NCBI GenBank assembly: GCA_017623235.1
Contig: JAGAPN010000033.1
Coordinates: forward strand, 13,725-77,724
DNA: 64,000 nt
Reading direction: 5' to 3'
Source of the DNA: Clostridia bacterium
Lineage (GTDB): Bacteria > Bacillota > Clostridia > Oscillospirales > Acutalibacteraceae
The notes beneath the pieces are model-generated. The model saw only the letters and a program-made list of their open reading frames with translations, did no database searches and was not told the origin of the DNA. The number at the start of each line of letters is the position of its first letter. Position 1 is the stretch's first letter. Of this stretch, positions 48,937-63,794 are shown piece after piece. The translations under genes and the position numbers were made by a program.

Positions 48937-49702
48937 ATTTTTTCAGCTCCTCCATTTTTGCCCTGTTGGGTATCTTAAATTCGTTTAGGCTTAATCCAAG
49001 AGCCTCCCGCTTGCTCTCACCCAGGGGATGATAGGGTAGAAGCTCATAACCCAAAATATTCTTAAAATCCTTGATAAAATCCCTTATTTTGCTTATTTCT
49101 TCGGGGTTGTCGTTAATACCCGGGATAATGGGGGTCCTCACAATAAAGGGCACGCTGAGAAGGTCCAGCATAATAAAATGGGGCTTTATCTTGTCGTTAT
49201 AAACCCCGATATATTTGTGGTGCTTTTCTCTGTCCCAAAGCTTAAAATCGGCCATTACCAGGTCAACGCTGCCAAGGATTTCGGGATTATAGATAAATAA
49301 TGAGGTTTCTATTGCGGTATGAATACCTTCCTTTTTGCAAAGGGCGATAAGCTCTTTCAGTATTTCGGGGTATAGCAGAGGCTCCCCACCCGAAAAGGTG
49401 ACACCGCCGCCACCTGCGTAGCTGGCCTTATCGAGCAATATTTCATCAAAGATTTCCTCTGCGGTCATTTCCTTACCGCAGATAACCCTTGCCCCGGCGT
49501 AGCAGCCCTTTTCACAAAGACCGCAGCCGATGCATTTTTCGGGATAAAAAAGGGTCTGTGGCGCCTTTTCAATGCATTCGGGATTGTGACACCAGGCGCA
49601 GGAAAGGGGACAGCCCTTAAAAAATACGGTGGTACGTATTCCGGGACCGTCGTGTAGGGAGGCCCGCTGAATATCGGCTACGATAGCGGTGTTTTTATCC
49701 AT
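48923..49702 (-). CDS. Glycyl-radical-enzyme activating enzyme (radical SAM), AE2
   Basis: HDGPGIRTTVFFKGCPLSCAWCHNPE. A single CIGCGLCEKGC...C insert (5 Cys). GGEPLL. Overlaps GRE2 by 14 nt. Confidence 0.85.
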   Translation of the reverse strand: MDKNTAIVADIQRASLHDGPGIRTTVFFKGCPLSCAWCHNPECIEKAPQTLFYPEKCIGCGLCEKGCYAGARVICGKEMTAEEIFDEILLDKASYAGGGGVTFSGGEPLLYPEILKELIALCKKEGIHTAIETSLFIYNPEILGSVDLVMADFKLWDREKHHKYIGVYNDKIKPHFIMLDLLSVPFIVRTPIIPGINDNPEEISKIRDFIKDFKNILGYELLPYHPLGESKREALGLSLNEFKIPNRAKMEELKKYADL

Positions 49703-50792
49703 TTATCTCTTCCTTTTTACCGCTTTCTGCTGAACGCAGAGCGGCATCTATAAGAGCCATAAGCTGGATGTTGAAATCCAGGGTTACGGTTTTAATAAAG
49801 GGTGTGCCCTCTCTTTTACAGTAGGCGTAATGGTCGGGCAGATTTTTTATAGCAGGGTGAATTTCATAGTCGGGCAGGGGAATAACCTCGCCGTAGCTGT
49901 TCATAGCTACAACCCTTTTGTCGGCATCGCAGAAAAGCACACCGTCGGTGCAAAGGTAAACGGGGCCTGTAGGCAGAGAGGCCTGGGGTACCGTCCAGCT
50001 ACCCTCAACCACACCGTAGGAATCCTTATATTCGATAATTCCTGCCATATTGTCGGGGGCATTCATATAGGGGGTGCCGTAGTTGCCCGAAAAAGCCATA
50101 ACCGAAAGAGGCTTATCGGTGGCATTATCCCTTGCCCATTGGTTGAAGAAACAGCCGTAGCAGCCGATATCAAGGAATGCGCCGCCCCCCGTTTCATTCT
50201 TATACCACCAGGTGGATGACCTCTCTTCATCGGTCATTTCCTGGGCCTTTTCACTAACGCCTCGATGCTTGGCACCCTTGCCCAGGGGGCCTGTATGACC
50301 GTTTATGTAAAAGGCCTTAATCAGCTTTCCGACAACACCGCTCTCCAGAGCCGCCAGCTGCTGATGCAGGTAGGGCCGCCAGATAACGGGCCAGTTAACT
50401 ACGGCCTCAATGCCGTATTTTTCTACCGATGCCTTTATTTTAAGGGTATCGGCAAGGCTTACGGCCATAGGCTTTTCGATGCTGACGTTAACGCCTCTTT
50501 TTGCACACTCCTCAACTATAAGGGGCTTATTTGCGTTATCGCAGAGAATGAATGCCAAATCGGGCTTTATTTCATCCAGCATTACCCTGTAATCCTCGTA
50601 AGGAGTTATGCCGAATTTTTCGCTGTTGTTCTTAATATTCCAGGCTCTGGTATATCTGGCCTGGGTGTTTTCGGGGGTTTCGGGGGGTACGTCGGCCATG
50701 CCTGCCAGGGTAAAATCGGGGCACTCGTCAATATACTGTGCAATCTCGTTTACGTGCATGTGGGCAAAGCCGATTATAACTGCTTTAAACAT
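49695..50792 (-). CDS. Gfo/Idh/MocA-family oxidoreductase
   Basis: N-terminal Rossmann segment FKAVIIGFAHMHVNE, EKP motif (VSIEKPMA), 365 aa. 8-nt overlaps on both sides. Confidence 0.75.
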   Translation of the reverse strand: MFKAVIIGFAHMHVNEIAQYIDECPDFTLAGMADVPPETPENTQARYTRAWNIKNNSEKFGITPYEDYRVMLDEIKPDLAFILCDNANKPLIVEECAKRGVNVSIEKPMAVSLADTLKIKASVEKYGIEAVVNWPVIWRPYLHQQLAALESGVVGKLIKAFYINGHTGPLGKGAKHRGVSEKAQEMTDEERSSTWWYKNETGGGAFLDIGCYGCFFNQWARDNATDKPLSVMAFSGNYGTPYMNAPDNMAGIIEYKDSYGVVEGSWTVPQASLPTGPVYLCTDGVLFCDADKRVVAMNSYGEVIPLPDYEIHPAIKNLPDHYAYCKREGTPFIKTVTLDFNIQLMALIDAALRSAESGKKEEING

Positions 50793-51858
50793 TTATCTTC
50801 ACCTCTCGGCCTTCCTTTGCGGAAAGGTAGGCCGCCTCAAGTATTGCGGTAACGTTCAGGGTTTCCTCGGGCAGAACGGCAGGGGACGCCTTGCCGTTTA
50901 TTACCTCTGCCATATTCTTAACCAGGCAGAAATGTCCGTAGAAGGGGTCATCCTTAAAGCCATTGGGAGTAACCTCTAAATCTTTTATATCCTCGGCGCC
51001 GCTATAGACCTTTTTGGCCTCAATATCGACGCCGCAGTTTTTACCTGCAAGAATAATATTGTTTTCCTCTCTGAGGTTTGCCGCCCAGGCCACCTTAAAG
51101 GAGAGGGTTGCGCCGTTTTCAAAACGGACGCTGCCACCCGAGAAGGATTCAACGTTCATATCGTCGGGATTAAAGCCTGAGGTATCGACGTTGCCCTTAA
51201 GTGCCCCCGAGCTTTTGTCGGAGCCCAGCTCATCGGAATGTATTTTACTCATTGTGGCGGTAACCGAAACAGGCTTGGGGTTGCCCATAAGCCATATTGC
51301 GCTGTCGATACCGTGAACGCCAATGTCCACCAGGGCGCCGCCACCCGAAAATTCCTTAAGGTGGAACTTGCCCCAGGTGGGAATACCTCTTCTGCGAATA
51401 CGGGACAGCTCGGCATAATAAACCTCGCCTACAGCGCCGCTTTTAACCTGCTCAAAGGCAGCCTGGCGCTCGGGCAGAAAACGCAAGCTCTGGCAGGCCA
51501 TAAGGGTAAGACCTGCGTCTTTTGCGCAATTAAACATCTCCCTTGCATCGGCCAGGGTAAAGGCCAGGGGCTTTTCGCACAGCACGTTTGCGCCGTGGTT
51601 TAGGGCCAGCATAGTGTATTCTTTGTGAAGCATATTAGGGGCGCAGACCGATACCAGGTCGGGCTTTTCGGTTTTCAGCATCTCCTCGGCATCTGTGTAA
51701 ACCCTGGGTATACCGTGGGTAGCGGCAGCCTTTTCTGCCGCAGGGGAGTATATATCGAATATACCCGCTATCTCAAAATCCTCGGGATATGCTTTATATG
51801 CAGGGATGTGGGCGGAATTTGCTATCATTCCTGCGCCGATAATACAAACCTTAAGCAT
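50785..51858 (-). CDS. Gfo/Idh/MocA-family oxidoreductase
   Basis: MLKVCIIGAGMIANSAHIPAY, VLCEKPLAFT, GALVDIGVHGID. Confidence 0.8.
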   Translation of the reverse strand: MLKVCIIGAGMIANSAHIPAYKAYPEDFEIAGIFDIYSPAAEKAAATHGIPRVYTDAEEMLKTEKPDLVSVCAPNMLHKEYTMLALNHGANVLCEKPLAFTLADAREMFNCAKDAGLTLMACQSLRFLPERQAAFEQVKSGAVGEVYYAELSRIRRRGIPTWGKFHLKEFSGGGALVDIGVHGIDSAIWLMGNPKPVSVTATMSKIHSDELGSDKSSGALKGNVDTSGFNPDDMNVESFSGGSVRFENGATLSFKVAWAANLREENNIILAGKNCGVDIEAKKVYSGAEDIKDLEVTPNGFKDDPFYGHFCLVKNMAEVINGKASPAVLPEETLNVTAILEAAYLSAKEGREVKINV

Positions 51859-52621
51859 TTTCTATCTCCTTTAAAAAACCAAGGGTCTCGCTGTCGGGCA
51901 GGGTGGCCCTGTATTCAAGACCGATATGACCCTTATAGTCGGTTTTATTTATTGCCTTTATTATGGAAACGTAGTCAACCCCTCCCGTTCCGGGCTGATG
52001 TCTTCCCGGGCAATCTGCCACGTGGAAATGACCGATAAGGTGAATGTTATCCAGCACCTGCTTTAGGTCGAAATCACCCATCATATTCTGATGATAGATG
52101 TCGTAAAGCATCTTTACGTGGGGGCTGTTTATTTCATCCAGCAACTCGAAAACGGGGGTGGCCCAGGGCATAGAATATCCTATCCTGTCTTTATCGTTAA
52201 GGGGCTCTACCACCAGGTTGACGTCGTGCTCCTCCAGCAGGGGCAGGGCGGCGGTAAGGCAGGCCTTAACCTTGTCCTTGTTGTAGGGGGCGTTTTCACC
52301 AATCAGCACTATCATGGCAGAGGCGCCCAGCCTTTTGTATACGGGGATGCTCTCCTTCAGGGCGGCTATAAAATCCTCACACCTGCCGTCGTTAAGTATT
52401 CCACGGGAAAGGTCGTAGGAAAGCTGCTCATCGGTGCTGTCTATATTGAAGATAGAAAGCTTCATATCCTCACTTTTCAGAATGTTCTCCACTCGGTCTA
52501 CGTCCTTGTTGGTCCATTTCCAGAACTCGGCGGTGTCATACCCACAGCCCTTCACAAGGCCGAATTTATCGTAAAATTCGGCCGTTGAGAACATCATATC
52601 AATACAAAGGCTTACCTTCAT
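51851..52621 (-). CDS. Hydroxypyruvate-isomerase-like (Hyi/OtnI-type) xylose-isomerase-fold TIM-barrel protein
   Basis: NLVVEPLN...VKMLYDIYHQNMMGDF...IGHFHVADCPGRHQPGTGGVDY...YKGHIGLEY parallels E. coli Hyi (IEPIN...IQYDIYHMQRMEGEL...IGHLQIADNPHRGEPGTGEINY...GWVGCEY). I prefer the ATG at 52621 (MKVSLCIDMMF, GGAG RBS), because the track's longer start would overlap the upstream gene's stop at 52633. Confidence 0.7.
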   Translation of the reverse strand: MKVSLCIDMMFSTAEFYDKFGLVKGCGYDTAEFWKWTNKDVDRVENILKSEDMKLSIFNIDSTDEQLSYDLSRGILNDGRCEDFIAALKESIPVYKRLGASAMIVLIGENAPYNKDKVKACLTAALPLLEEHDVNLVVEPLNDKDRIGYSMPWATPVFELLDEINSPHVKMLYDIYHQNMMGDFDLKQVLDNIHLIGHFHVADCPGRHQPGTGGVDYVSIIKAINKTDYKGHIGLEYRATLPDSETLGFLKEIENA

Positions 52622-52632
52622 CGTTATCTCCT

Positions 52633-54969
52633 TTAATAATCCAGGTCGTATCTTGTGGCGGCATACTTGCAGTATTTCCACAGTCCCATAAGACGGAATG
52701 ATTTCAGCTCATCCTCGCTTCTTATTTCGGTATAGGCAATATCAATGCCCTTTTCCTTACATTTAAGATAATTTTCCTCGGTGATGTAGGACTCTCCGCC
52801 GTTGGAAACGTAGATGAATTTGGGGTTATTCTCTCCGTAGGTGGCTATCTGACTAATGAGGGTGTCTGTTATTTTCTGCACCCAGGTACCCATAGCCGCC
52901 TTGGGGAGCTTATCTGCCAGATATACAAGGTCCGCTGCCGTCTGTCCGTTTATCATAAGGTTATCCTTATGACCGTAGAGGTCAATGAGAGCCACCAGCT
53001 CATCCAGCTTATCCTCGGTAAGGTCAACCTTTAATTCCAGATGGGGTACGACCTCTAATTCTTTACAAAGGGCCAAGAATTCCTCAACACGCATAATTTT
53101 TGTGCCCTTATACTGCTGACCCTTATATACACCGAAATCGTAGGTGTCGGCCTGGGCCAGGGTGATGTCGGCAATATTTATGGCTTCGTCGTTGGTTATA
53201 CGTTTGCCCTCGCTGTTGGTGGCGTAGCTGTTAATGGTCTTGTCGTGCAGGGCAACAAAATGTCCGTCTGAGGTCAGCCTTACGTCGCACAGCAGAATTT
53301 TATATCCCTTTTCATAGGCCATTCTGTAGGAGGCCAGGGATTGCTGGGGCGGGGTGTTGCTGTCGTAGGGACGGTAGCCGATACGGGCTATCTTCTGTAC
53401 GGCACGCAGACCCTCGCCGATAGTATCGTTAAGCAAAGCGGTACGGAAGTTAGCGGCATCCTCAGCATCTACAGAGCCGTTTTTGTTGGTATCGGAAATA
53501 TAGTAATAATCCTTGCTGACGTTCATATATACCAGGTCCCTTATATCAAACAAAGTGTCACCGTTGGCATCATAGTCCAGGGCGATATATGCGGGATTTT
53601 TAAAATGCTCGTAATAGTCAAAATTGTTCTTATCGCTTAAAACTGTGCCGTATCCCCCTGCTGAAACGGTGGCAGAATCCTCCTTGCCCACCGTACCGCC
53701 AAAGAATTTGGGACCGTCGGCCCAGCCGTAAAGACCCATATCAAAATTGGGATTAACCAGCAGATTGGTTCGGGTGGTATCGCCCTTTTTATACAGGAAG
53801 AAATTAGAGTAATTGCCCACCAGGGCGGTAGAGCTGTTTATTCTGACACCTACAATATGTCTTACCCTGTAGCCGTTCTCTTCGATAGAGCAGGCGTCGT
53901 CACCGCCTGCAGTAAAGGTAACGTAGGAAAGGTTGTAGGGACCGTACTCAAGGTTAGCCTCCTTGCATTGGGCCTCGGTAAGGTCGCAGGTCTTTTGAAT
54001 ACTACCTCGCACAGAGGAAAGGCGGGTAGTGGTGTTTGAGGTCTTGGAAGAGCCGGTCTGGTACTCGACCCATAAGGGCTCGTTCTTGTATCCGGAGTTG
54101 TCCTTGGTATCCACCGTGCCGTAGGCGCCGAAAACATACTCTACACCCTTTTCCAGGGCAATAGTCTGTCCAAAGGTAACGTTGCTTACGGCATTGTTGT
54201 TGGCAAGGTATTTGGGATTGCCCGTTACCTTGTCGGTGGAGGTGTAGGTGAAGCTTTCTATATAAGCGTAATCCTCGGGACTGGTGGAGGAGCCGCTGAC
54301 ACCAATACCTGCCGTACCCTTTAAATAGGGAGCTTCGGTGTCAAGGTAGGTGCCGGTTACCACCAGCTTTTCGGTATCGCCGTCAAGGGTGTAAAGGTTT
54401 ACGGTAATGGCCGCGGCCTTATCTCCGCTTATCACCATCTCCAGACGATAGCTCATACCCTCCTGCTGTGCGCTGACGCCGCATTGAAGCAGAGGGTTAT
54501 TGTTATCGGCGGTGCCGTTTATCTTGTGAAGCATTACTTTGCCGTTTGAGGGGCGGTAAAGGGCATAATATCCTGCCATTGTGGTCCAGTCACCGGGCCT
54601 GCTTAATCGGCCGTAAACGTAGGCTGTGTTACCCTTGGCCAAATCCTCATCGCTGAACTCTACCGCTATACGCTGGTTTTCACGCTCCATTTCGGGCAGA
54701 TAAATACAACCTGCGTAGGCCGAGCGGGTTTGCTTTTGGGTGATGACCTTCAGCTTTCCGTTTTCTACTGTGGAGGTGTATGCCCTGCCGTCGGTGGTTA
54801 CATTTTCCTCGGCCATAAAGGCCCAACTGTTTGCCAGGGAATTGCCTGTAAATTCGTCGGAATACACCCCGTTAATAGAGGTGGCAGTACCCTGCACCGT
54901 CATACCTGTGGGGGTGCAAATGGTAAGGCAAATTATAAGGGATAAGACTAAAGCGGCTATTCTTTTCAT
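52633..54969 (-). CDS. Secreted modular protein: LamG-like module, jelly-roll module, internal dockerin and a C-terminal divergent GDPD-like (PLC-like phosphodiesterase TIM-barrel) domain
   Basis: Signal peptide MKRIAALVLSLIICLTICTP. Shared modules with 61990..63666. Dockerin loops DANGDTLFDIRD and DTNKNGSVDAEDAANF at ~53425-53585. GDPD-like IARIGYRPYD...LLCDVRLTSDGHFVALHDKTIN at ~52633-53400. Confidence 0.65.
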   Translation of the reverse strand: MKRIAALVLSLIICLTICTPTGMTVQGTATSINGVYSDEFTGNSLANSWAFMAEENVTTDGRAYTSTVENGKLKVITQKQTRSAYAGCIYLPEMERENQRIAVEFSDEDLAKGNTAYVYGRLSRPGDWTTMAGYYALYRPSNGKVMLHKINGTADNNNPLLQCGVSAQQEGMSYRLEMVISGDKAAAITVNLYTLDGDTEKLVVTGTYLDTEAPYLKGTAGIGVSGSSTSPEDYAYIESFTYTSTDKVTGNPKYLANNNAVSNVTFGQTIALEKGVEYVFGAYGTVDTKDNSGYKNEPLWVEYQTGSSKTSNTTTRLSSVRGSIQKTCDLTEAQCKEANLEYGPYNLSYVTFTAGGDDACSIEENGYRVRHIVGVRINSSTALVGNYSNFFLYKKGDTTRTNLLVNPNFDMGLYGWADGPKFFGGTVGKEDSATVSAGGYGTVLSDKNNFDYYEHFKNPAYIALDYDANGDTLFDIRDLVYMNVSKDYYYISDTNKNGSVDAEDAANFRTALLNDTIGEGLRAVQKIARIGYRPYDSNTPPQQSLASYRMAYEKGYKILLCDVRLTSDGHFVALHDKTINSYATNSEGKRITNDEAINIADITLAQADTYDFGVYKGQQYKGTKIMRVEEFLALCKELEVVPHLELKVDLTEDKLDELVALIDLYGHKDNLMINGQTAADLVYLADKLPKAAMGTWVQKITDTLISQIATYGENNPKFIYVSNGGESYITEENYLKCKEKGIDIAYTEIRSEDELKSFRLMGLWKYCKYAATRYDLDY

Positions 54970-54986
54970 AAACCCTGTCTCCGTTT

Positions 54987-56267
54987 TTATTTTTCTTCGT
55001 AGTAATCCTTCTTTTCAAAGGTAAGTCTTTCAAGATTTTTTGGGGCATCGCCGAAATCGGGAACCTCAATGGGCAGTCCGTCCTTCATAGCCGACTCGTG
55101 GGCTATAATTCCGGGGATGATGTATCTTGCCGAATCCCAGGCGTTATTGGGGGGCAGCTTGTTTGCTACCACCGCTCTCATAAAGTCGTCCACCAGGAAG
55201 GGGTGAGAGTTGTAGTGAACGGTATCGGGGCAGCTTCTGAATGCCAGGGGCAGACGGTCAACGTCGTGAATAGGGGCGAAGCCTCTGTGAGCAGGCTCCG
55301 AAATGGGGTAGGTGTTTATCGCAAAATCGGGAGCCTTGGAGGTCTTTGTATAGGTGTTGGTGTTCAGCAGGTCGCTGACGTAATCAATTCTTGTATCGTC
55401 CACACCTGCTGCGGTACCCTTTATAAGCACGTGCTGGGTAACCGAGCCCTCGTAGCCACCCTTGTCGCCGTAAAGGCAGGTTATGTAGGAGGAGGGCTTG
55501 TGGGGGATACCTGCGCGGCGGAACTCATTAATTCTGGCCACACCGCCGCCCGACATCTGCATAAGGGCGGTTTCATTACTGAAGGGGTTATCCCAATTAT
55601 TTTTACCCTTGCCGAAAACACCGTCCTCGTGGTTATCTCGGTAGCCCATACAGCTTACCTTGGTAACGTGCTCGTCTATAACCGAGGTAATCATAGAAAT
55701 AGAATGGGTGGAGTAGTACATAGGAGGAATACCTGCAACCCTCTTCCAATCCTTGCCGCCTGAGTGGGCAAAGGCGTAGTAGAAGGTGGCCATATCGTGG
55801 TAATACTGGCTTTCTCCGTAAACAAATTTACCGAGCAGTCCTTTGCGGTAAACATCACGGCAGAAGATAGCGCAGGGGAAGTAGTAGCAGGTTTCACCTG
55901 TCATATAAACCATACCCGTGCGCTTTACTGCTTCAATAATTTTCCCCATATCCTCAATATCCGAAGCCATAGGCACGGCGCTGAAAACGTGCTTGCCTGC
56001 ATTAAGGCAATCCACCGCCATACTGCCGTGGAGGTGACGCTGTGTAAATATTGCCACACAGTCAACGTCCTTGCCCTCACGCAGCACCTCTTCAAGGGAG
56101 TGGAATATTCGGCTTATACCGTGTTTCTTGGCGGCGGCATCGCACCTTTCGGGTACAATGTCGGCTACCGATACCTCAGCCACGTCGGGATGGCTTTTAA
56201 AAAGGGGAATAAAAAAGTCGGAAAACTCTCCTAAACCCACTATACAAACCTTATGCTGCTTTGACAT
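54987..56267 (-). CDS. Gfo/Idh/MocA-family oxidoreductase (426 aa form)
   Basis: MSKQHKVCIVGLGEFSDFF Rossmann start. I prefer the ATG at 56267 (RBS GAAAGAAGG) over the TTG at 56285. It is the first gene of the - strand operon that ends with GRE2. Confidence 0.65.
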   Translation of the reverse strand: MSKQHKVCIVGLGEFSDFFIPLFKSHPDVAEVSVADIVPERCDAAAKKHGISRIFHSLEEVLREGKDVDCVAIFTQRHLHGSMAVDCLNAGKHVFSAVPMASDIEDMGKIIEAVKRTGMVYMTGETCYYFPCAIFCRDVYRKGLLGKFVYGESQYYHDMATFYYAFAHSGGKDWKRVAGIPPMYYSTHSISMITSVIDEHVTKVSCMGYRDNHEDGVFGKGKNNWDNPFSNETALMQMSGGGVARINEFRRAGIPHKPSSYITCLYGDKGGYEGSVTQHVLIKGTAAGVDDTRIDYVSDLLNTNTYTKTSKAPDFAINTYPISEPAHRGFAPIHDVDRLPLAFRSCPDTVHYNSHPFLVDDFMRAVVANKLPPNNAWDSARYIIPGIIAHESAMKDGLPIEVPDFGDAPKNLERLTFEKKDYYEEK

Positions 56268-56333
56268 ATAAAAACCTTCTTTCAAAGAATAAATCTTTCC
56301 AAATATAATATATCATATAAGGAGCGATTGTTA

Positions 56334-56370
56334 AATGGACAAAACGGTATTTTTTGCATATAAAACGGTA
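56334..56370 (-). promoter_or_regulatory. Two phased direct repeats (AAAACGGTA, 21-bp spacing) in the divergent promoter region between the oxidoreductase operon and the AraC gene. Candidate operator.
   Basis: AATGGACAAAACGGTA (56334-56349) and GCATATAAAACGGTA (56356-56370). Both longer strings recur identically at 63736-63751 and 63780-63794. On the - strand the proximal repeat abuts a TTGTCC -35-like hexamer. Confidence 0.6.
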
Positions 56371-56405
56371 GTAGCGGCGGCTCTGCTTGACAAAGGCAAA
56401 ATTAT

Positions 56406-57260
56406 ATGATAAAAATAAAATATAAAAAACGTCGGGAGGTGCCTGAAATAAATATCTATGACAGCATTTTCAGCCTGCCTGAAAATGAGTTTTTCGTGGG
56501 AGATTTTGCCGCCGTCCGCAAGGAGATTATTCCTCCCGCACATTTCAAATGCCATAAAAATCTGGTGCTTTATCAGCGGTTTGTATATGTAGTAAAAGGT
56601 ACTTTTATCTTTAACGATGAGGTGCATAAAAACGTAAGATTTGAGCCCGGGGATATCATTTATCTTCCCTCCGACGTGGTTTATGAATCCTATTGGGAGA
56701 AGGACGAGATAGGGGAGTTTATTTCACTTAATTTCTGCCTTTACGACCCCTTGCATAATAATATAAATCTTTTTGACGACTTGGTGCTGGCCTGTAAAGA
56801 CCCCGACCGAAAGCTTTTCTCGGTGTTTGACGAGGTCCAGGAAATCTGGAATAAATCTGCCAGAGGCCATAAGCTGCAGTGTATATCCCATCTTTATGCT
56901 CTGCTTTACCGTATAGGCAAATATTCCTTACGACTTGAAGAAGGCAGTAAAAACGCCATATCAAAGGCGGTTATATACCTGGAAAATCACTTTTTAAACG
57001 ACGTCACCGTGGAGGACCTGGTAAAGCTTACCAACGTGGGAGAGTGTCAGTTTAGGCGAAGCTTTAAGGCCCTTAAGGGAATGTCACCCATAAAGTACCG
57101 CAATATGCTTAGGATGACCAAGGCCATAGACCTGCTTAAAACGGGGGAGTATTCGGTTGTGGAGGCCTCTATGATAGTAGGCTTTGATGACCCTTCATAT
57201 TTTTCCAAGCTTTTTAAAAAACAGTTTGGCCAGAGTCCTTCGAGTTATATACCGCAATAA
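56406..57260 (+). CDS. AraC/XylS-family transcriptional regulator
   Basis: N-terminal cupin-like sensor region. C-terminal double HTH VEDLVKLTNVGECQFRRSFKALKGMSPIKYRNMLRMTKAIDLL...VVEASMIVGFDDPSYFSKLFKKQFGQSPSSY. Confidence 0.85.
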   Translation: MIKIKYKKRREVPEINIYDSIFSLPENEFFVGDFAAVRKEIIPPAHFKCHKNLVLYQRFVYVVKGTFIFNDEVHKNVRFEPGDIIYLPSDVVYESYWEKDEIGEFISLNFCLYDPLHNNINLFDDLVLACKDPDRKLFSVFDEVQEIWNKSARGHKLQCISHLYALLYRIGKYSLRLEEGSKNAISKAVIYLENHFLNDVTVEDLVKLTNVGECQFRRSFKALKGMSPIKYRNMLRMTKAIDLLKTGEYSVVEASMIVGFDDPSYFSKLFKKQFGQSPSSYIPQ

Positions 57261-57295
57261 AAAAGGGAGAAGATTCACCGAATCTTCTCCCTTTT
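57261..57295. terminator. Bidirectional rho-independent terminator
   Basis: AAAA GGGAGAAGATT caccg AATCTTCTCCC TTTT, between the AraC stop (57260) and the rhaM stop (57300). Confidence 0.85.
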
Positions 57296-57299
57296 AGTT

Positions 57300-57617
57300 T
57301 TATCTGAAACTGAATACCTGCCGCATTAAAGGCTGGGCACCCGTTTCGGGGTCAAGCTCCATTACCATAATGTCGGCCATATATTCATTCCAGCGGTCAA
57401 CCACAGCGCTTTCACGTTGAACCCGTGCGGCGTGGTCGACCCCTTTTTCACATTCGTAGTATCCGAAAAGGTCGTTACCTGAGTTCCAAATACTATAGTT
57501 TACTATACCGGCCTCGGTAAGCACCGCCTTCATTTCATCCCACAGGGCATCGTGACGGCGTATGTATTCATCCAGACAGCCTTCCTTTACGGTTGCCTTC
57601 CAAGCATATTTTTCCAT
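57300..57617 (-). CDS. rhaM: L-rhamnose mutarotase
   Basis: 105 aa. YAWKATVKEGCLDEYIRRHDALWDEMKAVLTEAGIVNYSIW...LFGYYE...RWNEYM matches the RhaM/YiiL family pattern. Confidence 0.8.
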   Translation of the reverse strand: MEKYAWKATVKEGCLDEYIRRHDALWDEMKAVLTEAGIVNYSIWNSGNDLFGYYECEKGVDHAARVQRESAVVDRWNEYMADIMVMELDPETGAQPLMRQVFSFR

Positions 57618-57626
57618 AAATATACC

Positions 57627-58967
57627 TTATTTCAGCTTATCAAGCACGTCGTTGGTGCTCTTAACGGCGGCATCTACCAGGTTAGAATACTCGTTAAGCT
57701 TGGTGGATGCATTGGCGGGCTTTGCATTGATGATGCTGGCGTTGATGTGAATACCACCCTTACCGATATCGTCGGTGATAAGGCCGCAATCATAATTTAC
57801 GTACATATTTTCGGCCTTCATAAGAGCCTCGTGAACGTCCAGCATAGTGGGGTCACAGAAGAAGGTGTTCTTATCATAGTTTTCAGAGTCGAGGTAGTAG
57901 CGGAGGAAGAAGGGTGCAAGGCTTCCACAGGGAGCGCCCTGGGGAATAGCGTAAGCCTCTACCTCGGACCAAACTGTTGCATTGGTACCGCCGTCAATGG
58001 TGGGGAAGGGAACAGCAGCAAGAGCGCCCTGTGCCTTTAAGGACTTCCAATAGAAATGAGTACGGCGAACGCTGATAAGCGACTCTGTGAAGAAGAGAAT
58101 TTTGCCGTTTTCAAAGTTGTTGATATCGAAACGGATGTTGTTGGTGATGCCGTCCTCTCTGAGCTGGCACATCTTCTGCCAACCCTTTAAGAGGTTGGGG
58201 TCGCTCATATTGGAAACGAAGCGGTCACCCTCACGCTTAATCATAGCAGAACCGTAAGCATCGCCTGCGTCGGCCCACTGGTAAGAGGTCCAGGGCAGGT
58301 AGGTGTCGTCATCAACCTCTTCCTTGAAGGTCTTGCAGATTTCCTCAAACTTTTCCCAGTTCCAGTTGCCTTGCTTCCAGAGAGAGTAGGGGTCTTCAAG
58401 GTCAAAACGGTTTATAAGATTTTTGTTGTAAAGAAGTGCGCGGGGCTGCTGAAGCAGGGTGTTGCGCATATTGGTGCCGTAGGTTTTACCGTCAAAGGTG
58501 TAGAAATCCATAATACGGGTATCCCAGGCCTCGTCGGTGAAATCAAAATCAATGTTCTGCAGGGGCTCAAGCACACGGATAAGACCTGTGTCGATGCGCA
58601 TAAGTCTTACGATGTCAGGGGAGTCCTGAGAAGCAACACGGGCGGCAATTTTGGTAGAATATTCGTTGTAGCTGCCCTTTACCCATTCGATTTTAATGCC
58701 TGTTTCGTTCTCAAACTGCTCAACAACGTCTACTGCGCCTGTAACGTCGGTAAGGTCGTTCCAAGAGAATACCTCAATGGTCTTGCCCTTGGCATCTGCA
58801 GGAATTTTGGCCTTGATTTCCTGCCAGCCTGCATTATTGGCAGAGTTGCCGGTATTGTTGCCCGAGCTTCCGGTGTCGGAGCTGTCGCCGTTTCCGCCAC
58901 AGCCAGCAACGGTGAATACCATAGCTAAAGCCAGAAGAAGACAGATAAGTTTAGATGCGATTTTCAT
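57627..58967 (-). CDS. ABC transporter substrate-binding lipoprotein, orphan paralog of 22301..23665
   Basis: Lipobox FTVAGCGGNGDSS. Extensive shared blocks with the 454-aa SBP. No permease genes adjacent. Confidence 0.8.
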   Translation of the reverse strand: MKIASKLICLLLALAMVFTVAGCGGNGDSSDTGSSGNNTGNSANNAGWQEIKAKIPADAKGKTIEVFSWNDLTDVTGAVDVVEQFENETGIKIEWVKGSYNEYSTKIAARVASQDSPDIVRLMRIDTGLIRVLEPLQNIDFDFTDEAWDTRIMDFYTFDGKTYGTNMRNTLLQQPRALLYNKNLINRFDLEDPYSLWKQGNWNWEKFEEICKTFKEEVDDDTYLPWTSYQWADAGDAYGSAMIKREGDRFVSNMSDPNLLKGWQKMCQLREDGITNNIRFDINNFENGKILFFTESLISVRRTHFYWKSLKAQGALAAVPFPTIDGGTNATVWSEVEAYAIPQGAPCGSLAPFFLRYYLDSENYDKNTFFCDPTMLDVHEALMKAENMYVNYDCGLITDDIGKGGIHINASIINAKPANASTKLNEYSNLVDAAVKSTNDVLDKLK

Positions 58968-59068
58968 TTGTGTTCCTCCTTGAAATTTATATTATAATGA
59001 TAAAACATTTAAGGACCCTGTTCAAGTTATAATAATGCTGAATTATATAACAAAATCATTCTAAAATA

Positions 59069-61975
59069 TTAATATACGCTTATTTTCAGCACGCTGGCGC
59101 CTGCTACACCGCCCATATAAGAGCCGCCTACTATGTATTGGGGAATGGTAAGAGGGGTAACCCCGTCTTCGGCGTACTTTGTAACGTATTTCTTGGCGGA
59201 GGCATCATAGGTGGTGGCCAGAATCTCGGAATAGAAGTTGTTGTGAACGTGACCGCAGAAGATGCCCTTTATAACCTCGGGGTTAGAGGCGATAAGGTCA
59301 AATACCTTGGCGGTATAGTTTTCCGAGGGACCCTTTGCATCGGAGCCACGCTTAATATAATAGTTATTTTCACCCATAGCGCCTGCCTCACTATCGGGCA
59401 TTGCAGCGCCGTAGCCGGTGTTGAAGGGCACAAATTTGGGGTAGGCCTCGTTATAGGTGTTCATAGGAACGTGCTGGAAAATAAGTATGGGCACGCCGCT
59501 TTGCTTGCAGTCTGCAATATCGGCGCTGAGCCTGTTATAAATGTTGCTGTTATCCTGGTATTTTACCGCCTGGTTATCCATAACAACAATCTTTACCTGC
59601 TTGTCACCCTTGGTGATAACCTCGCTGTGGTAGTAGATGTCGTTGGGCCAGAAATCGCTGTTCAGCTTCTGATATTTATAGTTCTGGGTAAACATTTCTC
59701 TGAAGCCGTTTGCCTTGGATACCTTGGCAAAAAGCTCGGCGGTTTCGTGGTTGCCCAGGGCAATCAGCAGATTATTATTAATGGAGCGGTCTATCAGCAA
59801 CTTTTTAGAAAGCTCAGCAGTACCGTAGGAGAAGTAGTCCATAATATCGCCGATAACAACGGTTTTGTCATAAAAACTACCGAATTCCATCAGCTTTGCG
59901 GAGTTGGCAACACTGCCGAAGCCCTTGTCAACACGGCCCATATCACGGGACACAACAGAGGTTTTACCATCCTTGTCGGTAACCTCCACGCCGAACCATT
60001 GAGCGTTTACGGATGGGTTGTTAAGAAGGGTATCCATCTTATTATAATAGTTAAAGTGAATGTCCGAGAAGGCAGCGATTTCAATAGGTGTGCCGCCCTG
60101 TGAGCTGTCACCGATAACGATATCCCTTACCAGCATATTATTCTTAAGCAGATAAGCGGCGTGGTTGGGGTCACGGTCGGTTTGGCTGTCGGGGGCGTTG
60201 GGGCCGGTAAGCCAGGCAGAAAAGGCGAACCCGCCGTTACCTGTGGTCTTGTCGATAATGCGCTGGCCCTCAACGTAGGTGATAATGGTGTTGCAAAGCG
60301 CACCGGCCTCGTCACCCAGAGCCTCTTTTTCGGCAAGAGCCGTCTTGTAAAGGCTGGTGGTGAGGTAATCGGTGTAAAGAACTCTGGCCACACCGTTTAT
60401 GTCGGTGTACTCGGCATAGCCCTTTACGGTATAGAATTTATAATACTTATCCTTTGTAAGCTGTTCGATAGAATCGGTGATACAAAGGGTGTACTGCTCG
60501 GCTGTAGAGGAGCGGGCGTAGATGTTGGCGGCCGCTACCTTTTTGGGGGAATAGGAGGGGGTGATACTACGGTCTACCACGTGGGCAGAGGATATTTCCA
60601 TATCGGTGCCGCCCGAATAATTGGTAGGCATATAAATTGCGCCGAAGCTCACGCTTCCTACCGCTGATTTTAAAGCGGCTTCAAATTTGCGGTTCTTTTC
60701 GAAGATGATGCGCAGGCCCTGCTTATCGACGCTGTCGGAAACAGCTCGAAGCTCGGTGCCCTTTATGCAGAAATCACTCTCGGCAAAATCCACGTACTTG
60801 GCGTAAAGGATATCTCCTGTCTTGAATTCGCCCGAGCTTACGGCCTTGCCGTTTTTATCGGTCCAGCCTACAAAAAGCTTGCCCTCGGGGTCAAAATAGG
60901 TAAGCTCTGCAAAATTAAGGTTGGTATCCTTCTTTACCTTAATTTCCTTGCCGCCGTTTAAATATTCAATATCGGAATCGGGGAAGGTAACGCTGTATTT
61001 ACCATAGCTGTTAAGGGCAAGCTCCTTGGAAACCGATTCCAGCATTTCGCCTACCGAGGATACGGCCACAGCCTCGTTGTCACCGACCACCTTAAATACA
61101 CCTCTGGTGTCGGTAATCTCCAGATAAGATGCGCCTTTTTCACAGCTCATTACATAAACTCCTTCCTTTGCAGTAAGGGTTTCGGAAATTTCATACAATC
61201 TGTACATTCCGTTGTTGTACAGCAGGGTAACAGCTCCCTCAAACACAGGGGTCTTACCCTTGGTGGTGTAATACATATTGCCAACCTCGGCGCCGATGGT
61301 AAGGTTAAGGTCACCTGTAAAGGTAACGCCGCCGCTGGCGTTGGCGCCTAAAATAAGGTTGGAAAGAGCCGCATTACCCGAAATATTTATGTTGGCGTTG
61401 CGGACCGTAATATCGCTCGCAGAGGTGGAGCCTACGTATATCGAGCCGTAGCTGCCGCCCAGTAGGGTAAGGTTAATATCCTTGCCGCTGACGTCGGCGC
61501 CTGCGTCTATGTTAAGGGAATAGGAGGCAGAACTCTTGGTAACCCCCTCGCCGCAGGTAAGGGGATAGCCTGCAGTGCCAAGAAATACCCAGGTATTGCC
61601 TGCAACACCTGCGCAAAGGCTGATGTCCTCAAATACGGTGGGTCCGCCCAGCAGTATGTTTTTTGTGTAGTGGAAGGTAGCACCCTCACCGGTAAAGGTT
61701 ATTTCCTTGGTGTGGGAGGGAATATTTTCCGATACCGTCAGGGTACCTGCAACCACTATACAGCCCTTATCGTCGGTAGAGCCATCTATGGCGGTTACGG
61801 CCGAGGCAAGGCTGTTAAAAGGTGAGGCAGAGCTGCCGTCACCATCGGTAGCGGCCGAGGTATCAAGATAGACGGTTAGGCAGGTTTTTGTTGTATCATT
61901 GGCAAAGGCAGAGGTGGAAAATACCGATACGATAAGGCAAAGGGTCAGTATTACTGCTATAATTATTTGTTTCAT
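59069..61975 (-). CDS. Secreted 968-aa protein: N-terminal beta-helix/adhesin-like repeats and a C-terminal calcineurin-like metallophosphoesterase domain
   Basis: Signal peptide MKQIIIAVILTLCLIVSVFSTSAFA. Metallophosphatase motifs occur in order at ~59200-60090: AAFSDIHF (DxH), VIGDIMDY (GD), ALGNHE, IFQHVP, CGHVHNN (GHxH). Confidence 0.75.
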   Translation of the reverse strand: MKQIIIAVILTLCLIVSVFSTSAFANDTTKTCLTVYLDTSAATDGDGSSASPFNSLASAVTAIDGSTDDKGCIVVAGTLTVSENIPSHTKEITFTGEGATFHYTKNILLGGPTVFEDISLCAGVAGNTWVFLGTAGYPLTCGEGVTKSSASYSLNIDAGADVSGKDINLTLLGGSYGSIYVGSTSASDITVRNANINISGNAALSNLILGANASGGVTFTGDLNLTIGAEVGNMYYTTKGKTPVFEGAVTLLYNNGMYRLYEISETLTAKEGVYVMSCEKGASYLEITDTRGVFKVVGDNEAVAVSSVGEMLESVSKELALNSYGKYSVTFPDSDIEYLNGGKEIKVKKDTNLNFAELTYFDPEGKLFVGWTDKNGKAVSSGEFKTGDILYAKYVDFAESDFCIKGTELRAVSDSVDKQGLRIIFEKNRKFEAALKSAVGSVSFGAIYMPTNYSGGTDMEISSAHVVDRSITPSYSPKKVAAANIYARSSTAEQYTLCITDSIEQLTKDKYYKFYTVKGYAEYTDINGVARVLYTDYLTTSLYKTALAEKEALGDEAGALCNTIITYVEGQRIIDKTTGNGGFAFSAWLTGPNAPDSQTDRDPNHAAYLLKNNMLVRDIVIGDSSQGGTPIEIAAFSDIHFNYYNKMDTLLNNPSVNAQWFGVEVTDKDGKTSVVSRDMGRVDKGFGSVANSAKLMEFGSFYDKTVVIGDIMDYFSYGTAELSKKLLIDRSINNNLLIALGNHETAELFAKVSKANGFREMFTQNYKYQKLNSDFWPNDIYYHSEVITKGDKQVKIVVMDNQAVKYQDNSNIYNRLSADIADCKQSGVPILIFQHVPMNTYNEAYPKFVPFNTGYGAAMPDSEAGAMGENNYYIKRGSDAKGPSENYTAKVFDLIASNPEVIKGIFCGHVHNNFYSEILATTYDASAKKYVTKYAEDGVTPLTIPQYIVGGSYMGGVAGASVLKISVY

Positions 61976-61989
61976 ATCATCCGCCTCCT

Positions 61990-63666
61990 TTAGTTAAATT
62001 TATCATCGTCGACCGAGTCGTTATCAAGGCCGAGAATATCAAAGGTTTCTTCTATAGTATCCAGCAGAGCAACCCGCAATACTGCGGTGTCCTCGCCGTC
62101 AAAAAGACCGTTTTTATTGCTGTCTACAAGGAAATAATAATCCGTCGATTTTGCGGTATAAACTATATCGCAGATATTGAATTTCTTATCTCTGTTGGCA
62201 TCGTTTGCCAGGCCCTCGTAGGCAGGATTTTTGAAAGTATCATAATATTCATATTTATTTTTATCCTGCAGCAGGGAAACGTAGCCCTGTGACGAGGTCA
62301 GCTTGCTGTCTTCGTCGGTATTGGCAAAACCGTAGTAATTGGGGGCGTCGGTCCAGCCGTAAAGTCCCATTTTAAAATCGGGGTTTACCAGCAGATTGGT
62401 GCGATACGGGTCGTCCTTGCGGTAAAGGGTAAAGTAGGAATAATTACCCAAAAGTACGTCATCGGTGGTAAGTCTTATACCAACGATGTGTCTTACCTTG
62501 CCCTCTATGGTAGAGTCAACGTAGGCCACTCCCGTGCTGCCCGACTGGCTGCTGACGGGATTACTGCCTGCCGTAAAGGTGACATAGGAGAAATTATATT
62601 CGCTGTAGGGCAGATTGGCCTCGACGCATTGTGCCTTTGTAAGGTCGCAGGTTTTTTGTATGTACTTACGATTGTCGTATATTCTGGACCATACATTATC
62701 GGAGTAGGTGGAGCCCGAATGATATTCTACCCATAAAGGCTCGTTGGCGTAGCTGCTGCCGTAAAATGAATCAACGGTACCGACGGCGCCGAATACGTAT
62801 TCAACGTTAGGCTCCAGAGCTACCGTCTGACCGAAGGTTTTCGAGCTCACAGAACGAAGATGGCTTAAATATCTCTCGCCGCCCGAATAGTTATCGGTAG
62901 AGGTATAGCTGAAGTTGTCGACACAGGCATACTGGGAAATGCCCGATTTGCCGCCTACACCAACGCCTGCAGTACCCGAGGTAAAGGGGGTCTTGTCAAC
63001 AAAGGTGTTGTTAACCACCACCAACTGAGCGGAGGAGGTTATTTTAATAAGACGGACATTTATTACGGCATACTGCTGTCCCGTTACCGTCATTTCAAGG
63101 CGGTAGCTGCAGCCGCTCTCATAAGCACGGCTTCCGCAGGTGTTGTATTGCAAATTTGTATCTGTAACTGCCGTCTGCTTGCTTGCGGTATCTGCCCTGT
63201 AAAGCAGAACTCTGCCGTCAGAGGTGCTGTATCTGGCATAGTAGCCTGCAAAGCTTCTCCAGTTGCTGTCATCCTTTTTGGTAAGACGGGCGTAAACGGA
63301 TACGGTGTTACCCTGGGGCAGGTCGGTCATATTAAATTCAACCGCAACCCTCTGGTCGCAGGTTTCCTTGCCCGGCAGATAAAGGGCGCCGGCAAATCTT
63401 GAACGGTCCTGATTCTGGGTGTCTACCTTTAGCTTACCATCTGCCACCGAAGAGGTGTAGGTGTAGCCGTCAATGGTTTCGCCCTTGCCCATAAGTACCC
63501 ATTTGTCTGACAGGCTATTTTCCGAAAAATCATCGGAATACACCAGGTTTATGGGTGTGCTGTCCTCGGCCGAAGCCATAAAGGCCGAAACAAAGCAGGC
63601 GGTAAGGCACAAAACGGTAGCTAAAATAATAGCCAAGCCACGCTTAAAGACTGTTTTAACCGTCAT
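61990..63666 (-). CDS. Secreted modular protein: LamG-like module, jelly-roll module and a C-terminal dockerin. No enzymatic domain is recognisable.
   Basis: I prefer the ATG at 63666 (MTVKTVFKRGLAIILATVLCL..., RBS AAAGGAG) over 63699. Collinear with the N-terminal 470 aa of the 778-aa protein (e.g. NEPLWVEYH/Q.GS, IQKTCDLT.AQC.EANL.Y, RTNLLVNPDFKMGLYGWTD). Dockerin loops DANRDKKFNICD and DSNKNGLFDGED at ~62050-62215. Confidence 0.7.
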   Translation of the reverse strand: MTVKTVFKRGLAIILATVLCLTACFVSAFMASAEDSTPINLVYSDDFSENSLSDKWVLMGKGETIDGYTYTSSVADGKLKVDTQNQDRSRFAGALYLPGKETCDQRVAVEFNMTDLPQGNTVSVYARLTKKDDSNWRSFAGYYARYSTSDGRVLLYRADTASKQTAVTDTNLQYNTCGSRAYESGCSYRLEMTVTGQQYAVINVRLIKITSSAQLVVVNNTFVDKTPFTSGTAGVGVGGKSGISQYACVDNFSYTSTDNYSGGERYLSHLRSVSSKTFGQTVALEPNVEYVFGAVGTVDSFYGSSYANEPLWVEYHSGSTYSDNVWSRIYDNRKYIQKTCDLTKAQCVEANLPYSEYNFSYVTFTAGSNPVSSQSGSTGVAYVDSTIEGKVRHIVGIRLTTDDVLLGNYSYFTLYRKDDPYRTNLLVNPDFKMGLYGWTDAPNYYGFANTDEDSKLTSSQGYVSLLQDKNKYEYYDTFKNPAYEGLANDANRDKKFNICDIVYTAKSTDYYFLVDSNKNGLFDGEDTAVLRVALLDTIEETFDILGLDNDSVDDDKFN

Positions 63667-63735
63667 AATATTTTCTCCTTTTTGAAGAAGTAATAACACA
63701 TCATTATAATTTTATCACATTAAAGCGTTTTCTTG

Positions 63736-63794
63736 AATGGACAAAACGGTACTATCTACCAATAAAACGGTACTAAACTGCATATAAAACGGTA
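63736..63794 (-). promoter_or_regulatory. Three phased direct repeats of AAAACGGTA (21- and 22-bp spacing) upstream of the 61990..63666 operon. Candidate operator of the same regulator as at 56334-56370.
   Basis: AAAACGGTA at 63743-63751, 63764-63772 and 63786-63794. The flanks reproduce the 16-mer AATGGACAAAACGGTA and the 15-mer GCATATAAAACGGTA from the AraC-adjacent region. The proximal repeat again abuts TTGTCC on the - strand. Confidence 0.6.

Follow-up and report, generated by a model that had tools for sequence, protein, structure and literature searches.

The stretch of DNA analysed here, referred to as the window, is 64,000 nucleotides (nt) long and comes from a member of the Acutalibacteraceae (Clostridia; assembly GCA_017623235.1, contig JAGAPN010000033.1, positions 13,725 to 77,724). 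Between positions 56,334 and 63,794 it carries two groups of phased direct repeats, each placed upstream of an operon, and the two operons lie on either side of a gene for a cupin-AraC regulator. This gene (protein P0001; 56406-57260, plus strand) is divergent from operon 1 and convergent with operon 2. Operon 1 (46711-56267, minus strand) is a cassette that encodes a Gfo/Idh/MocA protein of 426 amino acids (aa; Gfo426), a 778-aa GDPD-like protein, a xylose-isomerase-like TIM barrel protein, two more Gfo/Idh/MocA proteins, a radical-SAM activase and a PFL-like glycyl radical enzyme (GRE). Operon 2 (57300-63666, minus strand), whose gene order is the same in the orthologous loci L022 and L024, comprises the genes for a 558-aa lipoprotein with a dockerin-like C-terminus, a 968-aa metallophosphoesterase, an ABC solute-binding protein (SBP) and a RhaM-family mutarotase. 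A first-pass annotation of the window had proposed that the repeats are an AraC-linked operator shared by the two operons, and comparative genomics supports this proposal, with binding and activation standing as predictions.

Phased repeats at two promoters

The 9-base-pair (bp) word AAAACGGTA occurs on the plus strand at positions 56341, 56362, 63743, 63764 and 63786, in steps of 21, 21 and 22 bp, and a re-scan of the sequence returned exactly the repeat coordinates that had been reported before. Since both operons are on the minus strand, the sites are read on that strand, where the word becomes TACCGTTTT; its five copies are split over the two promoter regions, and the first group lies, as had been described, within the divergent region shared with the AraC gene. 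The window as a whole holds 9 copies of AAAACGGTA, against 0.67 expected from shuffled sequences, and the remaining four (2395, 23969, 39082 and 63611) are single copies, each within a long open reading frame. The copy at 63611 falls within the opening gene of operon 2; a role for it as a downstream operator was rejected, as the copy is not conserved in L022 or L024.

The assembly is a metagenome-assembled genome of 1.61 Mb in 84 contigs that is only 71% complete, so additional sites may be missing from it. The bare 9-mer is frequent in this genome (73 copies, with about 14 expected from base composition), and therefore the word alone proves nothing and the signal resides in its phasing and flanks. 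Exact same-strand pairs at 21-22 bp occur three times in the genome, where 73 copies would give about 0.003 by chance, and all three fall at the two window sites. The identity between these sites also extends beyond the 9-mer, as the first-pass annotation had noted: the 16-mer AATGGACAAAACGGTA and the 15-mer GCATATAAAACGGTA each have exactly two occurrences in the 1.61-Mb assembly, one pair of places for both, namely the sites of the window. The genome-wide pattern search that had been suggested for the 15- and 16-mers and the phased pairs accordingly leads only to these sites. A motif scattered over unrelated loci had been named as evidence against a shared operator; such scattering is found for the bare 9-mer, and the phased pairs and the 15- and 16-mers are confined to the two sites. 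A weight matrix trained on 15 proximal sites, which include the window's own two, scored both of these at 27.7 bits on the genome, and the next-best match (20.8 bits) sits in coding sequence and is without conservation in orthologues. A literature search for the motif string returned matches that looked unrelated by title and abstract.

Half-site anatomy and promoter geometry

The repeated unit had been taken to be 9 bp long, and this has to be corrected: it is asymmetric, spans about 16 bp and consists, on the minus strand, of TACCGTTTT followed by a variable 7-mer. At both sites this 7-mer is GTCCATT in the promoter-proximal copy and ATATGCA in the most distal copy, while the middle copy of operon 2 has ATTGGTA. 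Upstream of operon 1, the proximal half-site TACCGTTTT-GTCCATT (56334-56349, minus strand) extends from about -49 to -34, and the distal half-site TACCGTTTT-ATATGCA (56355-56370, minus strand), 21 bp upstream of the proximal one, extends from about -70 to -55. Over the 15 aligned sites the proximal core is invariant (15 of 15) and the following box, or B-box, is 74% conserved. The distal half-site of operon 1 is exact in seven loci with the divergent layout, the window included, and degenerate but T-rich in the remoter ones. Upstream of operon 2 there are three half-sites, all on the minus strand: a proximal one, TACCGTTTT-GTCCATT (63736-63751, about -49 to -34), which is kept in L022 and L024; a middle one, TACCGTTTT-ATTGGTA (63757-63772), after a 21-bp step and also present in L022; and a distal one, TACCGTTTT-ATATGCA (63779-63794), after a 22-bp step, which is present in L022, L024 having two copies only.

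These positions are counted from a predicted -10 element. An extended -10 with the consensus TRTGnTAnAnT starts 27-28 nt past the core in most of the aligned sites, although no clear copy is found at that distance in L157 and L030. The window sequences are TATGATATATT at the first site, where the predicted element (TG-A-TATATT) occupies 56307-56315 on the minus strand, and TGTGATAAAAT at the second (63709-63719, minus strand, predicted), 28 nt after the proximal core. On this count the core covers -49 to -41, the following box -40 to -34 and the distal unit -70 to -55, and the third unit of operon 2 falls at -92 to -77. Transcription would then start near 56300 and 63702 on the minus strand. 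The half-sites keep a fixed distance to the -10. The sequence that lies between them is not alike in the two window promoters. A cre-like match between the operon-2 operator and its -10, seen by eye, was dropped, its CG centre being lost in L022.

Counting from the conserved extended -10, one finds TTAACA where the -35 should be at the first site (56329-56334), and unrelated hexamers take its place elsewhere among the aligned sites; the 9-bp core ends 6 bp before this position. The first-pass annotation had read TTGTCC as a -35-like hexamer. However, TTGTCC is part of the conserved half-site TACCGTTTT-GTCCAT, since the -35 position given by the extended -10 is the next hexamer, and taken as a -35 it would lie some 23 bp from the -10. 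Of the AraC/XylS-type layout that had been described, the phased direct repeats are retained, as is a proximal unit at the -35, provided that TRTGnTAnAnT is the -10; the -35 assignment itself is not. Activator-dependent promoters usually look like this, with a -35 that is weak or absent, a -10 that is extended and a regulator site reaching down to -34.

Conservation across orthologous loci

No orthologue of P0001 was found in 60 GTDB relatives, where the best match has 35% identity, which made footprinting among close kin impossible, and orthologues were therefore taken from a large protein collection, in which the family is represented at 43-99% identity. Twelve other loci were fetched, with regulators 43-89% identical to P0001, and several of their contigs end within the cassette. 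All twelve have the cassette, complete or partial and minus the GDPD-like gene, next to the AraC orthologue. In 11 the regulator gene is oriented divergently to those for Gfo426, the TIM barrel, the two Gfo proteins, the activase and the GRE. The intergenic region shared with the AraC orthologue in this layout is short (130-220 bp). In every one of these regions an exact TACCGTTTT stands 70-95 nt before the start codon of Gfo426, and RTCCAT or a similar box comes after it. The exact core is thereby present between the regulator and the oxidoreductase/GRE cassette in 11 of 11 other loci with the divergent layout; the rearranged locus, L029, has a degenerate copy with one mismatch.

In a motif-blind count, no 9-mer except TACCGTTTT occurred in each of the 12 divergent regions (that of the window included), and among 300 shuffled controls no 9-mer was found in more than 5 of the 12. 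When seven diverged lineages are compared, pairwise identity is 1.0 in the core, 0.74 in the following B-box and 0.68 in the distal unit, and it drops to 0.25-0.28 in the flanks and the spacer. Phylogenetic footprinting, which had been proposed as a check, hence supports the operator: the core is invariant, while identity in the flanks has fallen to about 25%. At operon 2 the site persists in the two closest loci, as three copies in L022 (regulator 89% identical) and as two in L024 (65%); the operon-2 genes were not found beside the regulator in the other loci with enough recovered flank.

Larger collections were also scanned. The motif with its RTC extension had four matches in the JGI metagenome contigs, one of them a true look-alike that carries orthologues of both the regulator and Gfo426. 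The bare 9-mer pair gave at least 119 matches in a genome contig collection of 596 Gb, those listed being all unrelated (coding repeats, other phyla) and with neither an AraC or Gfo orthologue nor the RTCCAT extension, so that the pair of 9-mers is by itself unspecific on this scale. The 60 relatives that have no regulator contain the paired motif once, in an unrelated context, and no close Gfo426 orthologue was found in them, from which it follows that regulator, cassette and site travel together.

The regulator

P0001 has a double helix-turn-helix AraC domain at residues 207-282 (PF12833, 70.5 bits, cut-off 33.6; PF00165, 60.7 bits, cut-off 26.6). Its N-terminal cupin signal is weak (Cupin_3, 21.7 bits; Cupin_2, 20.2 bits), both scores being below their cut-offs, and this half of the protein is well conserved among the orthologues. 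P0001 does not reach the equivalog cut-off of any of the named regulators AraC, RhaS, RhaR, Btr and PocR, its best scores being those for Btr (74.9 bits; cut-off 900), AraC (62.9; 208), RhaS (59.1; 288) and RhaR (37.6; 525). The recognition helices are nearly invariant among the orthologues (E213, F216, R217, F220, K221; D262, Y265, F266, F270), and this match to an invariant core was counted toward P0001 as the protein that reads the site. One clade (P0021, P0017 and P0024) has K219 and N264, and in the same three the box TGCT replaces TCCA, an association that would fit direct reading of the box by these residues. The gene has a promoter of its own (56387-56416, plus strand) formed by TTGACA, a 17-bp spacer and TATGATAAAAAT, which begins 16 bp past the distal half-site and is kept in L022 and L024.

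Proposed mechanism and alternative explanations

Taken together, the repeats are probably the operator of the cupin-AraC regulator encoded at 56406-57260, and the probability of this interpretation can be put at about three in four. Each half-site of about 16 bp would consist of TACCGTTTT and a box, RTCCAT in the proximal unit and ATATGC in the distal one, and one regulator subunit would read each unit through its two helix-turn-helix motifs. The units would act as direct repeats placed one or two 21-22-bp steps apart, a spacing that would put the bound subunits on one face of the DNA, and the proximal unit would end at the expected -35 location. Because the extended -10 is conserved, the -35 is not and the proximal unit is found at the -35, the regulator is most likely a class II activator, and it would recruit RNA polymerase in a ligand-dependent manner. 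In the window genome, and likewise in its two closest relatives, the Gfo/Idh/MocA-isomerase-GRE cassette (operon 1) and operon 2 would then be switched on together. We infer the binding protein, the activation, the transcription starts and the inducer from these comparisons.

The layout agrees with what has been published for operators of this family, and this agreement was counted as support for AraC-type recognition. The sites of predicted AraC-family sugar regulators are direct repeats with a 21-bp periodicity (PMC3870299), the I1 half-site of E. coli AraC is 17 bp long and recurs after a 4-bp spacer in the I1-I1 construct, which binds tightly (PMC2241862), and AraC sites located upstream of promoter elements have been taken as a sign of activation (PMC8579813).

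Several observations weigh against recognition by P0001. The orthologues start at GTG (L022) or ATG (L024), 6-7 nt after a conserved GGAGGTG, and the window codon at the same place is ATA (56448), which makes the expression of P0001 uncertain. The sole upstream in-frame ATG (56406) falls within the conserved -10 (TATGATAAAAAT) of the regulator's own promoter and so may not be transcribed; weak translation of P0001 in this genome, use of a non-canonical start or an assembly error at this base are the possible readings. The covariation between helix and box is confined to one clade and thus amounts to a single evolutionary event. The 6 kb upstream of operon 2 contain two other AraC genes. Moreover, repeats of 9 bp parted by a 12-bp spacer are no less typical of LytTR regulators (PMC6193735), one gene of which is present in the genome. 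Finally, the regulator of L029 follows the cassette, with everything on one strand, and a degenerate pair (TATCTTTTT-N12-TACCTTTTTGTGCTTT, L029:900-960) is found upstream of that operon in inverted orientation, with a TTGACG -35 at a distance of 8 bp; there the operon seems to have taken the place held elsewhere by the regulator's own promoter.

The same protein could bind the repeats and yet mainly repress, or behave as a dual switch, for instance by shifting among the three operon-2 half-sites with and without ligand, as AraC does between O2-I1 and I1-I2. In favour of this, there is an overlap between the proximal site and the region contacted by RNA polymerase, operon 2 has three half-sites in L022 as well as in the window, and dual regulation is known from AraC itself (PMC2241862). 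Nevertheless, the non-conserved -35 and the extended -10 are typical of activator-dependent promoters, two half-sites suffice in L024, and there is no conserved remote half-site that could serve for looping, the match at 63604-63619 not being conserved. Predominant repression or dual control is accordingly considered unlikely.

The existence of other AraC genes nearby suggests that one of them could read the repeats, at least those of operon 2, the candidates being a 279-aa protein (L001:5150-5989) and a 292-aa protein (L001:1993-2871). The 279-aa protein is encoded directly upstream of operon 2 in L022 and L024, it shares 96% identity with the protein encoded next to operon 2 in L022, and a similar gene is found in L024, so its gene is co-located with this operon in three genomes. 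However, its DNA-binding domain is only 26% identical to that of P0001, it is absent from seven loci that keep the site, and in the window genome 4.6 kb of inserted DNA lie between its gene and operon 2. Direct repeats were searched for before the two other AraC genes and none were found. The use of the same half-site sequences at both operons argues for a single reader, and the participation of a second AraC protein is judged improbable.

The spacing of the repeats also calls for considering that a LytTR-family regulator binds them and that the AraC gene is a mere neighbour. The sites of this family consist of 9 bp, a 12-bp spacer and another 9 bp, 4-11 bp before the -35 (PMC6193735), and the repeats match this description, with 12-13-bp spacers and a core that ends 6 bp before the -35 position. 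The genome contains a single LytTR gene (C57:18102-18371), and no repeat pair occurs near it. LytTR systems are usually autoregulated. Moreover, no LytTR gene was found in the orthologous loci with listed genes (flanks of up to 10 kb on each side), a 9-bp site leaves the conserved RTCCAT extension unexplained, and the site goes with the AraC orthologue. Seven of the loci (L025, L154, L155, L027, L028, L157 and L030) have no other regulator that is consistently close by. Binding by a LytTR protein is therefore very unlikely.

The idea that the likeness between the two sites is the leftover of a local promoter duplication with no regulatory role, to which their separation by 7.4 kb, their common 15- and 16-mers and their equal core-to-(-10) distances might point, is excluded for practical purposes by the footprint, given that the core is invariant across loci whose flanks are identical only at the random level, and the stretch from half-site to -10 differs between the window promoters.

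Comparison with known systems

The switch is of a textbook type, conserved and ordinary in bacteria, and is a new and well-footprinted member of it. A close model is the AraC/araBAD system of E. coli, with which it shares a dual helix-turn-helix domain (joined here to a putative, weakly matching cupin sensor), asymmetric half-sites of about 17 bp arranged as direct repeats with a 21-bp period, the proximal one predicted here to reach the -35, and a regulator gene that is divergent from its target. The I1 half-site TAGCATTTTTATCCATA (PMC2241862) and the TACCGTTTT-ATCCATT of L022 and L024 agree at 13 of 17 positions with a one-base gap, which is to be read as a resemblance only. Unlike in the E. 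coli system, the distance between the two boxes is shorter by one base, a search for a remote O2-like half-site found none, and a third half-site is present at one target; the target genes are different, the host is a Gram-positive anaerobe, and P0001 is not an orthologue of AraC, as shown by its 62.9 bits against the NCBIfam cut-off of 208.

XylS acts at the Pm promoter through two direct-repeat sites, a distal one at about -70/-56 and a proximal one at about -49/-35 that touches the -35, and activation there depends on the regulator. Its motif is TGCA-N6-GGNTA, its host is proteobacterial and its ligand domain is different. The positions found here are similar, although they are computed from a predicted -10, and motif and host differ. 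The RhaR groups, PecR and HemR, predicted by comparative genomics in Firmicutes and Bacteroides, are likewise local regulators of sugar-use operons. They differ from the present case in the motif, which is here TACCGTTTT-RTCCAT, and in the regulator clade, the RhaS and RhaR scores of P0001 being far under the cut-offs; in addition, the targets are a GRE/Gfo-Idh-MocA cassette and not known rhamnose genes. The operators of the LytTR proteins AgrA, ComE and HdrR/BrsR resemble the sites in that direct repeats of 9 bp, parted by a 12-bp spacer, stand a few bp before the -35 (PMC6193735). Here, by contrast, the conserved unit is about 16 bp long, the locus and the listed orthologous loci have no LytTR gene, and the targets are catabolic instead of quorum-sensing or bacteriocin genes.

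Biological meaning

The shared operator would join two operons into one regulon, which is conserved whole or in part across diverged Clostridia of the gut and the rumen, and it adds one footprinted motif to the poorly charted AraC regulators of uncultured Oscillospirales. Operon 1 encodes a GRE whose reaction is uncharacterised, and the regulator, the operator and the uptake genes narrow the search for its substrate. Operon 2 could tentatively be viewed as the release-and-uptake stage for this cassette, the ligand of the regulator then being the sugar of the pathway, perhaps a hexose or deoxyhexose from a phosphodiester-linked glycan, an assignment that is possible but doubtful at present. Were it true, the regulator and its promoter would be a ready sensor for the substrate of an orphan GRE clade, and a reporter built from both could be screened against candidate sugars.

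Neighbouring genes

The genes for the SBP and the RhaM-family mutarotase may belong to the operon-2 transcript, as is suggested by their position on the same strand, by the lack of a predicted terminator between the genes and by the conserved order. A 101-bp gap (58968-59068) parts the metallophosphoesterase and SBP genes and has inside it a promoter-like TTGAAC-17-TATCAT on the minus strand, and so these two genes may own a promoter that is free of repeats. A strong hairpin with a 16-bp stem is predicted at 57261-57295, between the convergent AraC and rhaM genes, and it is likely a bidirectional terminator.

The gene placed within or next to the conserved cassette varies with the lineage: it encodes the GDPD-like protein in the window (52633-54969) and in L022, and a GH3 glycosidase in L027 (6539-8551). 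The gene that adjoins the regulator in L030 (6973-9468) codes for a GH2-like protein. The content of this variable slot hints at one core pathway that is fed by different glycan-cleaving enzymes.

Lastly, the comparison with L022 reveals about 4.6 kb of inserted DNA between operon 2 and the conserved 279-aa AraC gene (L001:534-5120, equivalent to G000:C53:77533-82119), just beyond the end of the window. The insert carries a beta-lactamase-family gene, the third AraC gene (292 aa), a gene for a Gfo/Idh/MocA paralogue and an EamA transporter gene; the paralogue is divergent, with 42% identity to Gfo426, and its tblastn match crosses one TAG.

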